DNA of 64,000 nucleotides. Origin: Myxococcota bacterium (GTDB lineage: Bacteria; Myxococcota_A; UBA9160; JAFDDA01). The notes beneath the pieces were generated by a model. That model saw nothing but the letters and a program-made list of their open reading frames with translations, made no database searches and was not told the origin of the DNA. Position 1 is the stretch's first letter. The number at the start of each line of letters is the position of its first letter. The position numbers and the translations under genes were made by a program. Shown here piece by piece: positions 8,995-13,345 of this stretch. Location: NCBI GenBank assembly GCA_965228475.1, contig OZ245817.1, forward strand, positions 4,192,001-4,256,000. Reading direction: 5' to 3'.

Positions 8995-11118
8995 TCAGGG
9001 GGTCAGATCGAAGAAGAGCGACAGCGAGTCGCCCGCACGGGCGGACTCCAGGTGGTCGAGGGTGATCCCGGCCAGGGTCGGCAGGCCGAAGCTCTGCAGG
9101 GAGTCGGCCAGGACCGGCAGGATGTCGGACTCGAGGAAGCCGGGCCCGCCCGAGACCCCATTCAGGAGCGCCTCCACGAGCGACGTGGTGACGGGGAGGA
9201 CCGGGTTCGCGTTCGGGAAGTTCGTGAAGAGCGCCGTCGCCGCTCCCGCCGGCACACCGCAATCGGCGGGCGGGCAATAGACCAGATCGAAGTCGATGGC
9301 GTCGGCGACCGGGTCGTAGGACATGTTGATGCCGGCATCCACCGAGATCCGGAGGCTCGTGAGCGTGGTGGGCAGGCCGCCGGGAACCGGCTGCTGCAGC
9401 TCGAAGCCCAGACCGCGGATGGCGAGCTGGGCCATGGAACCCGAAGGGAAGGGAAGACCCGTGACCACCGGCGGCGTCGTCGCGTAGTAGGCGAGCCGCA
9501 CGGGATCCGTCGGCGCGAGCCCGGTGATGAACAAGGCCGTCGGGTTGCCCGCGAACAGACAGTCCGCCGTCAGCGTCGGGTCGTTCCCGTTCTGCGGCGT
9601 CGCGCACTGGTCGAGCTCTTCGATGTAGCCACCCAACGCGCCCTGAGCGGTGAGCACGCGCAGGATCTGGCCGAAGAAGGGTTCGGTCATGCCGAGCCCG
9701 AGACCGAAGGGCAGACCGCCCGGCGTCGTGGTGATGGCGGCCGGGATTCCGGGAAGCGAGAACGGCGTATTGTAGGAAGCCGGGCCGGGATCGGGGCAGA
9801 AGTAGGGCGGCAGGGTCAGATCGAGGTCGCAAGCCGTCGGCGCGGTGACGACGGGCGCCGTTCGCACGAGGTAGAGGATCCCGTCGTCGTCCTCGGTGAT
9901 CGACGTGAACTCCGCGTTCAGGTCCGCGCCGAGACTCTGACCGACGCCCTGCCCGATCTGGAGGTCCGCCAGAGCGACCTCGACGGCCTCCTCGATCAGC
10001 GGCCGATTCGCGGCGTCCCCGTCGAGCGCGTCGACGAACTGCGCCTCCGCATCGGCCTGGAACTGCGGGCTCACCACGTTCGCGAGCGCCGGCGCGAGGC
10101 CGGTGTTGGCGCAGATCGTGTCCGGCGTGGTGATGACGAGGTTGAAGCTCTGGAGGTCCGCAACGACCTGCGTCTGGCTGACGGCGACGTTTGCCCCGGC
10201 CGGGGTCTGGTCGAGATAGCTGCGCAGGATCAGCGGATTGCCCTGCATGTAGCCCTCGCAGTAGACCGTTCCGAAGATCCCCTGGGAGGGGTCGGGTTCG
10301 ATGTCCCAGACGACGAAGTCGATGCGGAAGCTCGGGATCTCCACGATCACCTCGGTCACCGAGGGCGTCGGGCTCGCCGCGCCGTGGGCGTCGAGCGCGA
10401 CGGTGAGCGGCCCGTGGGTCAGGCCGGTGACGTAGCCGTCGAGCAGGGGGAAGCCCGGAACGGAGGGCAGCACGTCCTCCTGGTCGAGGATCTGCTCGGG
10501 GAATCCGTTCGGTGCCACCTGCGCGGGGATGTCGACGTTGGCCAGCAGGTTCGCCGCGAGCGTGTCGACGAGCGCGTCGAAGCCACCTTGCTCGTTCACG
10601 CGAAGCTCGACGCCCGGGTCGGCGAAGACGCTCCAGACGCCGGCCTGCCAACCGGACACGACCGTGACCGCCTTTCGCCGGAACGGCCGCGGCGAGAGCG
10701 TCGGCGCTCCGTAGAAGGCTTCGATGTAGATCGTGTTGATCGCCTCGTGCGCGCCCGTGCTCGCGGTGCGCGCGTCGATGTCGATCTCGACGGAGAACGC
10801 GCCGGTCACGGGATCGATCACGACCGGAACCCCCGACATGGCGCCGGCGCCGCCGGCGTAGGCGTCGGCGAGCTCCTGGTTCAGGTACGCGTGGGCCTCG
10901 ATGTCGGCGATCGTCCCGACGTTGCCGGCGACGACCTGCCCCGTGACCAGGAGCAGGTTCGCGGAGGCGGTCGGACCGAGGTCGTGATAGTGGTTGTCCG
11001 TAGGTGACTGAATGATCAGGTTCGGTTGCCCGACGCAGCTGGGGCCCAGGTTGGCGACTCCCGTGATCAGCAAGGCCAGCACGACCCAATGACGATTCCC
11101 CACGTTCAAACCCTCCAT
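8995..11118 (-). CDS. Large secreted/lipoprotein, putative BPI/LBP/CETP (TULIP)-like fold, paralog A
   Basis: Signal ending LGPSC (alternative start GTG 11103 after GGAGGG); Ig-like N-terminal region; motifs DPGVELRVNEQG, GLGMTEPFFGQILRVLTAQGAL, VRLAYYATTPPVV, ILPVLADSLQSFGLPT. The ORF is certain; the fold is inferred. Confidence 0.75.
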   Translation of the reverse strand: MEGLNVGNRHWVVLALLITGVANLGPSCVGQPNLIIQSPTDNHYHDLGPTASANLLLVTGQVVAGNVGTIADIEAHAYLNQELADAYAGGAGAMSGVPVVIDPVTGAFSVEIDIDARTASTGAHEAINTIYIEAFYGAPTLSPRPFRRKAVTVVSGWQAGVWSVFADPGVELRVNEQGGFDALVDTLAANLLANVDIPAQVAPNGFPEQILDQEDVLPSVPGFPLLDGYVTGLTHGPLTVALDAHGAASPTPSVTEVIVEIPSFRIDFVVWDIEPDPSQGIFGTVYCEGYMQGNPLILRSYLDQTPAGANVAVSQTQVVADLQSFNLVITTPDTICANTGLAPALANVVSPQFQADAEAQFVDALDGDAANRPLIEEAVEVALADLQIGQGVGQSLGADLNAEFTSITEDDDGILYLVRTAPVVTAPTACDLDLTLPPYFCPDPGPASYNTPFSLPGIPAAITTTPGGLPFGLGLGMTEPFFGQILRVLTAQGALGGYIEELDQCATPQNGNDPTLTADCLFAGNPTALFITGLAPTDPVRLAYYATTPPVVTGLPFPSGSMAQLAIRGLGFELQQPVPGGLPTTLTSLRISVDAGINMSYDPVADAIDFDLVYCPPADCGVPAGAATALFTNFPNANPVLPVTTSLVEALLNGVSGGPGFLESDILPVLADSLQSFGLPTLAGITLDHLESARAGDSLSLFFDLTP

Positions 11119-11190
11119 GGAGCCACGAATCGGCGCAGCTCTCGGTCCCGGAGCATCCTGGGGCAGCCGCCCCGGCGATGTCCAGAAAAA

Positions 11191-11227: not shown

Positions 11228-11287
11228 GTAGAGATGGTATTGCTGTTGGCGCACACGTTGGGGATGCCCCCCGGGGAGACGTGAAAC

Positions 11288-13345
11288 ATGCGAAGGATCG
11301 TCGTTCTTTGGGCCGGCCTGGTATTCGCCGCCACGCTGGGGCCCGCCTGCTCGAGCAACCCGAAGGTCAGCATCACCTCCCATCAGGACGGCGACTTCCA
11401 CTTCGTCATCGAGGACGGCGGGACGATCGAGCTCTCGGGCATCTACAAGAACCTGGGTCTCGATGCATCGCTGTGCGTCTGGACGAACGAGATCCAGGTC
11501 GGCGCCCCCTGCCCCATCGCCGTGGTTCGCAACCTCACGACCAAGACGTGGACCGCTTCGATCCCGGTGCCGTTCCCCTTCGGCGGGCCCGACTCCCCGC
11601 TCGCACCGCTGCTCCCGGTCTTCGTGACGGCGAACTACGGAAGCGGAGGCTCGCTCCAGGTGCGCGACCACGTTGCCCTGAACCTCGCCTTCGACGTCGC
11701 GAGCAATCACGGAACGGGCCGGGACGAAGCGATCGTCATGCGGCTCTCGCAGCAGGGGCTCGGATCGATCGCGTCCTTCGTCGCCGATCAGGCCGGCCAG
11801 GCGCTCGACCTCTCGGCGCTCGTCGGCACGCCCTTCCTCTCCGAGTGCGTGAAGGACTTCACCATCCTCGGCGTCACCTACTGCTACATCGAGATGGTCT
11901 CGGCGGAGATCTACGCAATCGAAGCTCCCTCGGCGCCCTCGATCAATCTCACCTCGATGCCCGGTGCGGTGCGCGCCAATTTCTCGCTCTCGGATCTCGA
12001 GTTCACCGCCAAGTTCACGTTCCGCTTCCGCGCTCCGCTACCGACGGCGATCTGGTCTCCGCCGATGACCTGCTTCTACGACGCGGAGCCGGCCCTCACG
12101 ATGACCCACGTCGACCTCGACCTCCTGCCGAACCCGAGCGATCCGCGCTTCGTCGCCGCCACCCAGCTCAACGATCCGACGGCCACGATCTTCGCCTACA
12201 CGGACAAGGTCACCTCCTGCAACAACGGCCTGAGCGGCGTGCTCGCCGAGCTACTCGACTTCATCGAGGAGACGAACGAGCTGATCGGGTCCACGCAGAT
12301 CGAGGCGGCCCTCGAATCCAAACTCAGCGTCGCCGGAGGGGCACCCATCGCCGGTGCCGTCGAGACGGCGCTCGCGGACGTCCAGCTGAGCGCCAACCTC
12401 GAGCAGATGCTCGACATGGATCTCGCCGGAACGGTCTCGGACGTTCAGGAAGACTCCGGCGGCATCACTGCGACCTTCGCGATCCACCCGCAGCCCACCG
12501 ACACGCAGTGCTCGCTCGGCAACCTTCCCGCGTGGGCGTGCCCGGACTTCGCGCCGGAAAGCTACATGTGGCCCATCTCCGATCCGGACGACTGGGATAC
12601 GGTGATCGCGCCGACTCCCTACGATCTCCTCCTGGGCCTCAATGCCAACGCGTTGAACCCGCTGCTCGGCGCCCTGGCGGAGCAGGGCGGACTCTCCTCG
12701 GGTCCGATCACGGAGCTCGACTCCTGCAACTACACACCGCCGCCGAACGGCCCCGGCTTCCCGCCGCACGGACCCGAACTCGATGTCGGCTGCCTCGTCG
12801 GGTACAACCCGCTCGCGTGCGCCGTGCTCGGCTACCCCTGCGACAAGGCGCTGCAGATCCGTGTCGTCCCGAGCAACAAGCCGGTGGTGCGGCCGAACAC
12901 GACGATGTTCGACGAGAACGGCGATCCGGCCCAGGCGAGCCTCGTCCTGCAGCTCCGGATCGAGGTCTGGGAGCGCGACACCGTGAACGACAAGCTGCTC
13001 GTGCAGCTTTACGCGAGTTTCGAGGCCGGCCTGAGCCTCGAGGTGGACACCGACACCGGCGAACTCGGTTTCGATCTCTTCGTGTGCGAAGACACGAACC
13101 CCTTCTGCACCTCGCCCATCCGGATGCAGACCACGATCAGCACGATGCCCGAGACGTCGATCGTCGCGAGCTTGATCGACGTCTTCCTGGGAGGCGGCGG
13201 CGGCTTCTTGAACGGGACGCTGAACGACTCGCTCCAGAACGCGGTCGTGTCGTTCCCCCTGCCGACGATCCTCGGTCTGACGCCCAGCGCGATCACCACG
13301 CTCGAGCATGAGCAGTACCTCTCGCTGTTCACGAATCTCCAGTAG
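11288..13345 (+). CDS. Large secreted/lipoprotein, putative BPI/LBP/CETP (TULIP)-like fold, paralog B
   Basis: Signal [21 protein letters not shown]; Ig-like start [11 protein letters not shown]; motifs [63 protein letters not shown]...[11 protein letters not shown]. Confidence 0.78.
   Translation: [685 protein letters not shown]

Follow-up and report, generated by a model that had tools for sequence, protein, structure and literature searches.

The window examined here, a 64,000-nt stretch of contig OZ245817.1 from a Myxococcota bacterium, carries two head-to-head genes, P0001 and P0002, whose C-terminal ~250 residues are related, by comparison at the family level, to the C-terminal lobe (C-lobe) of the lipid-binding proteins LBP and BPI. 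The pair is best explained, with somewhat better than even confidence, as an exported A/B pair of double-TULIP proteins that would act as a two-component carrier of lipids or other hydrophobic molecules under the control of a TetR-type regulator. Positions are given in window coordinates; those prefixed C1 refer to the whole genome, and L031, L032, L035 and L038 denote extracted loci.

Two paralogous genes with an LBP/BPI-type C-lobe

Both open reading frames (ORFs) are intact and lie head to head with 169 bp between them, as the first-pass annotation had described, and their paralogy is well beyond chance: BLASTP aligns 353 C-terminal residues at 31% identity from IEEAVEVALADLQIG onward (E 2e-15), and a second match covers the signal peptides. 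In the family alignment, P0001 and P0002 are 16.5% identical in the Ig-like region, 21.1% in the putative N-terminal lobe (N-lobe) and 27.8% in the C-lobe. The quoted signal ends (LGPSC and LGPAC) are correct, as is the position of the N-lobe start, with DPGVELRVNEQGG at 10582-10620 and its P0002 counterpart at 11726-11761. The G+C content at third codon positions is 0.90 for both genes, the same as in the surrounding real genes. An alternative GTG start of P0001 at 11103, with GGAGGG 7 nt 5' of it, corresponds to the 702-aa database protein P0003.

When family profiles were searched against all PDB chains, LBP and/or BPI came out on top without any other significant match in five of the six C-lobe-containing profiles. 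Profile A1 (18 sequences) retrieved LBP (4m4d, E 2.2e-5) and BPI (1bp1, E 1.1e-4), A4 (32 sequences) retrieved LBP (E 2.4e-7) and BPI (E 3.9e-5), and A8, made from 19 sequences of a single-copy clade (see below), retrieved BPI (E 5.6e-3). A10, restricted to the C-lobe of 18 sequences including six paired genes, matched LBP (E 1.1e-5) and BPI (E 3.4e-5), the latter over BPI 256-448. With A11 (65 sequences), LBP 4m4d was found at E 1.9e-8 (36.6 bits) and BPI 1bp1/1ewf at E 4.2e-6, with nothing else at E<=1, and the match covered BPI 230-448, i.e., the whole C-lobe. Among the runs reported to E<=1 (A4, A8 and A11), the one other match was an unrelated chain at E 0.74 (A8); in those reported to E<=10 (A1 and A10), the further matches were to unrelated chains, none of them better than E 0.13. 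HMMER alignments to 1bp1 further show that the BPI strings given in the first-pass annotation are real, namely PGVVVRISQKGLD (BPI 3-15), a 36-residue string and LPRVNEKLQKGFPLPT...HQNFL, and that they fall at the family columns proposed there. The Pfam model of this lobe, LBP_BPI_CETP_C (PF02886), scores at best 21.9 bits in relatives, below its gathering cut-off of 23, and 17.3 bits on the single-copy paralog of this genome. At the level of the family, these profile comparisons establish homology between the last ~250 residues and the LBP/BPI C-lobe. Thus, the C-terminal half of the original claim, that the proteins are two-lobed and BPI-like, stands, whereas the N-lobe goes unrecognised by sequence.

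Several results weigh against reading the two window proteins as double TULIPs. Searched singly, neither has a Pfam or NCBIfam match, and neither matches LBP_BPI_CETP or LBP_BPI_CETP_C, the two Pfam families that had been brought up for them (PF02886 not even at E<=10). Against the PDB, P0001 retrieves nothing and P0002 only two chance-level peptidase matches (E 0.6). A profile built from the A and B clades alone finds neither BPI nor LBP, and the link of P0001 and P0002 to these proteins is therefore transitive, via the single-copy clade, to which the A/B clades align over their full length (hhalign probability 100%, E 9e-79, 598 columns). As for the N-lobe, neither this genome nor any of 151 genomes of the order yields a PF01273 match, an N-lobe-only profile finds no TULIP in the PDB, 18 N-lobe segments match no TULIP family in Pfam, and the alignment of A4 with 14 DUF4403 sequences of the phylum is not significant (hhalign P 0.28). 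Comparisons of the N-lobe with the C-lobe by hhalign are not significant either (P 0.14 and 0.07), although the 0.07 run, in register and below the P 0.26-0.53 of the Ig controls, counts as a lead in favour of a second lobe; like a crude propensity profile, it is weakly compatible with a pair of barrels.

These results bear on whether the C-terminal domain alone is a TULIP, residues 138-432 of P0002 adopting another fold, in which case the proteins would be surface or matrix proteins with one hydrophobe-binding end. All the significant evidence does come from the C-lobe, four kinds of sequence test were negative for the N-lobe, and the genes lie amid PEP-CTERM surface-protein genes. We nevertheless regard this arrangement as quite improbable: the N-lobe region is right in size and position, and it opens with a BPI-like strand motif, in that the family consensus at its start, esvaLRlndsGLd, aligns to PGVVVRISQKGLD of BPI, at a score that is not significant. 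Moreover, four profile searches returned collinear, sub-significant matches to BPI 3-15, BPI 58-187 and LBP 81-175. The neighbours of the N-lobe in language-model comparisons point the same way; among them are a cluster of the BPI family from chordates (0.87), one from Bacteroidota in which 57% of the members have PF02886 (0.85), BPIB4 (0.82) and DUF4403 (0.81). Two N-lobe cysteines, C262 and C311 in P0002 numbering, are conserved in the family, one invariantly and the other nearly so. The N-lobe of BPI has a disulfide, Cys135-Cys175, and in the weak N-lobe alignments C262 and C311 are out of register with the BPI cysteines. Collectively, size, position and weak matches provide leads rather than proof that the N-lobe is a second TULIP lobe, and it is treated below as a putative one.

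Export signals, lipidation and charge

Upstream of the two lobes, a crude propensity profile shows residues 22-137 of P0002 to be all-beta, and Pfam Glucodextran_B matches 20 of the 32 aligned family members. Neither P0001 nor P0002 itself has a direct Glucodextran_B match; the Ig-like N-terminal region proposed earlier is thus supported for the family and not for the two proteins individually. In all nine full-length paralogs of the genome, a hydrophobic signal is followed by a Cys located 6-8 residues before the beta-rich domain. Among 36 rows examined for a lipobox, 2 follow the strict pattern ([LVI][ASTVI][GAS]C) and 16 a relaxed, PROSITE-like one. P0001 and P0002 fail both because of a Pro at -2, and in two orthologues the Cys is absent and the site is a plain AxA, both of which tell against lipidation. 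The label "lipoprotein" is thus uncertain, the signal ending in a Cys on a non-canonical lipobox that is not shared by all orthologues, and lipidation of P0001 and P0002 is no more than plausible. The paired proteins have 9-15 cysteines each, several of them invariant, a number that fits a site outside the cytoplasm.

That both proteins are very acidic, as had been noted, is borne out by their composition: the net charge of the mature protein is -59 for P0001 and -54 for P0002 (pI, the isoelectric point, ~4.05), i.e., about -8 to -9 per 100 aa compared with a proteome median of -2.8 (median pI 5.4). Values of -8 per 100 aa or lower were found in 62 of 1595 sampled ORFs (3.9%), placing P0001 and P0002 in the most acidic 4%. 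Such a strong negative charge argues against a BPI-style electrostatic attack on lipopolysaccharide and fits a carrier that does not stick to the anionic surfaces of its own cell.

The same charge bears on a possible offensive use, in which the proteins would be released to bind the membranes of other bacteria and to extract or disturb their lipids, like TipA or neutrophil BPI. The host belongs to the Myxococcota, the family has expanded to 11 matches in the genome, and one of the pairs (pair 1) adjoins a giant SpvB/FG-GAP/RHS-repeat protein, a type that often serves competition between bacteria. Additionally, TipA, the closest studied bacterial relative in kind, is presented in its preprint as predation-associated, binding bilayers and carrying lipids (bioRxiv 10.1101/2025.09.09.675085). 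However, a net charge of -54 to -59 is the opposite of that of BPI, and anionic membranes would repel the proteins unless divalent cations bridged them. A signal that ends in Cys points to proteins kept on the cell that makes them, and the pairs adjoin neither a secretion-system gene nor one for a TipB-like protein. An offensive role of the proteins of this uncultured lineage is considered unlikely.

An A/B gene unit and its candidate regulator

Family searches of the 5.0-Mb genome returned 11 matches: three divergent pairs, one single-copy paralog, two longer members and two distant ones. In a careful maximum-likelihood tree of 28 rows (own-protein duplicates, a 269-aa fragment and four later-fetched cluster members being left out), P0002 falls in a clade A (support 99/98), where it forms the longest branch of the tree, and P0001 in a clade B (100/100), and each of the three pairs consists of one clade-A and one clade-B gene. 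Three metagenomic proteins belong to each clade (P0004-6 and P0009-11 over both), and the two clades branch internally along broadly similar lines. A and B proteins are 22-28% identical, the same distance as that of either to the single-copy clade.

Within the order, 41 genomes (G000, this genome, included) were compared and 18 of them have the family, with 1-4 copies and never as adjacent pairs. When two candidates were scored per genome, the A/B profile matched 27 of 401 genomes of the phylum, the best foreign match reaching 299 bits compared with 858-874 bits for the genome's own pair; A and B types were not found in the 40 relatives of the order or in the 400 other genomes of the phylum. 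Homologue searches with P0001 or with the A/B alignment returned only the query protein itself. With P0002 as the phmmer query, 24 proteins were retrieved at E<=1e-3 from 1.84 billion representatives, four of them from this genome, and the family was accordingly taken to be rare at one stage. This reading was dropped when the single-copy clade proved large, the few matches being due to P0002 as a divergent query: with the single-copy paralog as query, at least 533 clusters (90% identity) were obtained at E<=1e-5, with 7999 candidates scored. The 120 relatives listed for that paralog are all at least 48% identical to it, and where they carry a name it is "hypothetical protein". Their organism labels are Myxococcota, Myxococcales, Deltaproteobacteria (an old name that took in the Myxococcota), Proteobacteria or "bacterium", and precomputed matches to Glucodextran_B and LBP_BPI_CETP_C are found in 24 and 4 of them, respectively. 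The single-copy Myxococcota family shares the architecture of the A/B proteins from end to end, as the 100% hhalign probability indicates, at a length of ~620 aa compared with 685-707 aa; the A/B proteins differ from it in their extra cysteines and insertions, in their divergent pairing and in forming much rarer clades.

The neighbourhoods of six single-copy orthologues show no conserved partner. In one of them (relative G016, L038:5890-9127), a gene for a Ca2+-dependent phosphoinositide phospholipase C (PF16670, E 4e-123) lies 14 bp behind the single-copy one, a neighbour absent from the other five. A distant member of 1009 aa in this genome, with a C-terminal PKD domain (L035:1837-6338; C1:4417837-4422338), has TetR genes on either side and represents a third locus tying the family to TetR regulators. 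Insertion of the locus was also considered, and comparison of window positions 1-20000 with same-genus and same-family genomes gave too few matches to say so; these were short (~70-83% identity) and lay outside 5100-15200, save for one 54-base match in the TetR gene.

Since the pairing of A with B is conserved, a joint function of the two is likely. Alternatively, A and B could be separate carriers, with other cargos or compartments, that share a bidirectional promoter and were duplicated en bloc as neighbours without forming a complex. BPI, LBP and CETP act as single chains whose two lobes form a pseudo-dimer, according to Levine (2019, PMC6791001) and to the TipA preprint (bioRxiv 10.1101/2025.09.09.675085), A and B are no closer to each other than to the single-copy clade, and most relatives are single, unpaired copies. 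This alternative deserves to be taken seriously, although we rather doubt it: the make-up of one A and one B is kept by all six paired genes, clades A and B are found only together in this genome, their branching matches broadly, and TipA, on the evidence of its preprint, shows that bacterial double TULIPs can be joined end to end.

The favoured A/B carrier comes with a candidate switch. The TetR-family gene behind P0001 (Table 1) is one of 91 TetR_N matches in the genome, of which a single one is a strong paralog of it, encoded 35 bp past the pair-2 B gene. These two regulators (32% identity over 206 aa by BLASTP, E 1e-34; tblastn E 3.3e-28, the next match being at 5.5e-4) are each other's only strong paralogs, and because they stand behind B genes, the unit of three genes, A<->B->TetR, was duplicated as a whole. 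The B gene of pair 1 is followed after 157 bp by the SpvB/FG-GAP/RHS-repeat ORF, which is longer than 1960 aa (L031:14120-20000; C1:1021120 onward).

An 18-bp dyad, ATGATCGARTGRTCATGT, recurs around the window pair. Allowing up to 4 substitutions, 8 of its 27 genome-wide matches (7 sites) are located within ~5.8 kb around the pair; allowing up to 3, the window has 5 matches, two of which hold by construction, against an expectation of 0.02, and this number was not attained in any of 100 shuffled sequences. One site lies directly 3' of the P0002 stop, and another overlaps the inverted repeat of the shared control region, whose 16-nt arms are 88% complementary. At 8895-8936, 59 nt past the P0001 stop, two perfectly complementary 19-nt arms enclose a loop of 4 nt, with the dyad copy at 8908-8925 as the core, and the lack of a T-run makes this hairpin look more like a protein-binding palindrome than a terminator. 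We read the dyad as a candidate operator of the neighbouring TetR. Pair 2 lacks the motif. Its A-B spacer (L032:11622-11809) is strikingly AT-rich in a ~70% GC genome and contains several ATTGAT/ATCAAT-type palindromes, which may serve as the operator of its own TetR paralog.

Scans of 7500-13700 for sigma-70 promoters and terminators gave none. A sigma-54 promoter in the A-B spacer was rejected, as it has two mismatches, lacks the GC at -12 and belongs to a class whose number of matches in the window is at chance level. Perfect sigma-54 promoters (TGGCAC-N5-TTGC) do occur at 7530-7544 (minus strand) and 13487-13501 (plus strand), before the flanking PEP-CTERM or PEP-CTERM-like genes, and the dyad site at 13468-13485 abuts the second of these, that of the downstream PEP-CTERM-like gene. 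PEP-CTERM genes are neighbours of BPI-like paralogs at about half of the loci, for a chance expectation of ~0.03 per locus within 1.5 kb (51 matches genome-wide in 5.0 Mb): on both sides of the window pair (4216-7537 and 13476-14324), 28 bp past the A gene of pair 2 (L032:13850-14956), 114 bp before a 769-aa paralog (C1:4153510-4153581) and ~1 kb from the 1009-aa one (C1:4415163-4415234).

Taken together, the exported A/B carrier could work as follows. A Sec signal with a Cys, a beta-sandwich spacer and a BPI/LBP-type two-lobed module would place P0001 and P0002 at the cell envelope or exterior. A and B represent two ancient sister subfamilies that always form one divergent A<->B unit, and the 169-bp control region between the genes would activate both at once. 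The TetR-type, ligand-sensing repressor encoded downstream of B, acting on the 18-bp dyad, would be the likely switch, from which a hydrophobic ligand would release it. After export and possible lipid anchoring, the beta-sandwich would hold the two-lobed tube; the apolar pockets of BPI take up lipid, and those of A and B would likewise accommodate lipids or other hydrophobic compounds. Both proteins would handle one and the same cargo together, either assembled into a hetero-oligomer or in a relay. Some observations fit this scheme poorly. A/B pairing is documented in one genome only, contig scans for the loci of the metagenomic relatives having found none, and no lipid-metabolism genes consistently adjoin the paralog loci. 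On the regulatory side, pair 1 has no TetR gene, no motif is common to the three A-B intergenic regions, and the dyad could be a small repeat element instead of an operator.

In a more specific version of the carrier, end-to-end contact of A and B would give a hetero-oligomeric lipid conduit of four barrels, comparable to the ~26-nm TipA homodimer, anchored through the beta-sandwich and the Cys and induced when TetR senses a hydrophobic ligand; it may serve the exosortase/PEP-CTERM system. Because PEP-CTERM genes are found at about half of the loci and a dyad site abuts a sigma-54 promoter, the conduit could serve that system, e.g., by carrying lipid or by shielding hydrophobic anchors. We consider this full scheme a long shot.

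Table 1. Features of the P0001/P0002 locus and the related genes of the genome (window coordinates unless prefixed C1)
Feature	Position	Strand or orientation	Basis or remark
P0001, clade-B BPI-like gene	8995-11118	-	707 aa from ATG; ORF list, translation, tree
P0001 signal peptide, residues 1-27	11038-11118	-	charged N-terminus, hydrophobic run, LGPS/C; Cys28 at 11035-11037
P0001 N-terminal beta-rich (Ig-like) region, residues ~29-159	10642-11034	-	aligned to Glucodextran_B-matching region of relatives
P0001 putative N-lobe, residues ~160-455	9754-10641	-	boundaries from alignment A4; putative TULIP
P0001 C-lobe, BPI/LBP C-terminal-domain homologue	8998-9753	-	profile A10, segment included
P0002, clade-A BPI-like gene	11288-13345	+	685 aa; ORF list, translation, tree
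P0002 signal peptide (residues 1-20) and Cys21	11288-11350	+	sequence; Pro at -2
P0002 N-terminal beta-rich (Ig-like) region, residues 22-137	11351-11698	+	alignment with Glucodextran_B-matching members
P0002 putative N-lobe, residues 138-432	11699-12583	+	boundaries from alignment
P0002 C-lobe, BPI/LBP C-terminal-domain homologue	12584-13342	+	profiles A4, A10 and A11 against PDB
TetR-family regulator, downstream of P0001	7724-8410	-	Pfam TetR_C_13 (2.7e-8), TetR_N (3.6e-4)
Shared divergent control region, 169 bp	11119-11287		inverted repeat 11192-11207/11211-11226
18-bp dyad, exact copies	8853-8870, 8908-8925		
Dyad sites with 3 mismatches	11212-11229, 13349-13366, 13468-13485		
Dyad sites with 4 mismatches	7668-7685; 11004		11004 within coding sequence
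Pair 1	C1:1016700-1020963	divergent	genome search
Pair 2	C1:1528555-1532822	divergent	genome search
Pair 3 (window pair P0001/P0002)	8995-13345	divergent	
Single-copy paralog	C1:2538075-2539937		

Relation to known BPI-like proteins

BPI-type lipid carriers were long held to be eukaryotic, and bacterial ones are only now emerging, TipA alone having been studied at the bench. The earlier remark that remote bacterial TULIPs are poorly characterised understates this literature, in which DUF4403, a BPI cluster in the AlphaFold database and the TipA crystal structures have all been published. DUF4403 was predicted to be a full-length bacterial BPI homologue, mostly found in lipoproteins, in the relevant passages of Levine (2019, PMC6791001), and YceB is named as a prokaryotic TULIP by Wong and Levine (2017, PMC5507252). 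Bacterial structures were reported to cluster with human BPI, one example with a TM-score of 0.81 (Barrio-Hernandez et al., 2023, PMC10584675); A0A2D5ZNG0 is the example cited there, and the figure legend spells out "D. bacterium" as Deltaproteobacteria bacterium. Crystal structures of TipA, a BPI-like double TULIP of Bdellovibrio bacteriovorus, are described in a preprint, whose available text reports that the protein co-purifies with phosphatidylethanolamine, phosphatidylglycerol and cardiolipin, that lipids occupy its lumen, that it forms an end-to-end homodimer of ~26 nm, that TipB is a beta-sandwich adaptor and that databases hold homologues with fused beta-rich domains (bioRxiv 10.1101/2025.09.09.675085). 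In the full-text literature, supplements aside, nothing was found on BPI-like proteins in Myxococcota, and on bacterial double TULIPs only the TipA preprint.

Against this background, the locus is a real, uncharacterised instance of a kind of protein already known, i.e., bacterial members of the BPI-like group. No description appears to exist of the ancient A/B pair, of its triplication, of the TetR duplicated along with it or of the dyad specific to this locus. The family is tied to LBP and BPI directly by sequence, beyond a likeness of fold, and with at least 533 clusters it forms a large, unannotated Myxococcota family with a BPI-like module, which bears on the origin of eukaryotic BPI, LBP and CETP. 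Two co-inherited partner types suggest that bacterial double TULIPs can work as hetero-assemblies. The locus also has a predicted regulator of its own and a candidate operator, and knowing the inducer might show what the proteins naturally carry. If true, a conduit serving PEP-CTERM proteins would for the first time connect a BPI-like carrier functionally with the exosortase/PEP-CTERM system.

Among known systems, LBP, BPI and CETP (4m4d, 1bp1 and 1ewf; PF01273 plus PF02886) share with P0001 and P0002 the C-lobe over BPI 230-448, with its LGLSD, TPP and FPLP motifs, as well as secretion, the order of N-lobe, linker and C-lobe, and a BPI-like motif opening the N-lobe. P0001 and P0002 differ from them in scoring below the Pfam thresholds, in an N-lobe that is unrecognised by sequence, in an extra N-terminal beta-sandwich, a Cys-ended signal, many cysteines and a charge of about -55 in place of a cationic one, and in their bacterial host, paired A/B genes and TetR.

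DUF4403 proteins (PF14356) are likewise bacterial and BPI-like over their full length, and many are described as lipoproteins with a short tether (Levine, 2019, PMC6791001). At ~460 aa and without an Ig domain they differ from the present family, which has no Pfam match to them and no significant hhalign relation (see above). In a sample of 201 genomes from the phylum, 32 have DUF4403, none of them in this order, and this genome lacks it too. The Ig-BPI-like family, by contrast, is found chiefly in this order and in one further family, and the two kinds of BPI-like protein may replace each other across lineages. The cluster of Barrio-Hernandez et al. (2023) likewise consists of uncharacterised bacterial BPI-fold proteins, and in the available text of that article neither pairing nor a regulator nor paralog expansion is described.

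The nearest parallel in kind is TipA/TipB, which, as presented in the preprint, is also bacterial and exported, and in which a BPI-like double TULIP is encoded with a functional partner gene. In TipA/TipB a beta-sandwich works with the N-lobe, and the TipA dimer is a precedent for the end-to-end joining of double TULIPs (bioRxiv 10.1101/2025.09.09.675085). No TipA-named chain was among the PDB matches at E<=10, and no ORF for a small beta-sandwich adaptor lies beside P0001 or P0002. In contrast to TipA/TipB, the beta-sandwich of P0001 and P0002 is fused at the N-terminus, the genes are divergent instead of forming an operon, and the partner is a second, putative double-TULIP paralog in place of a small adaptor.

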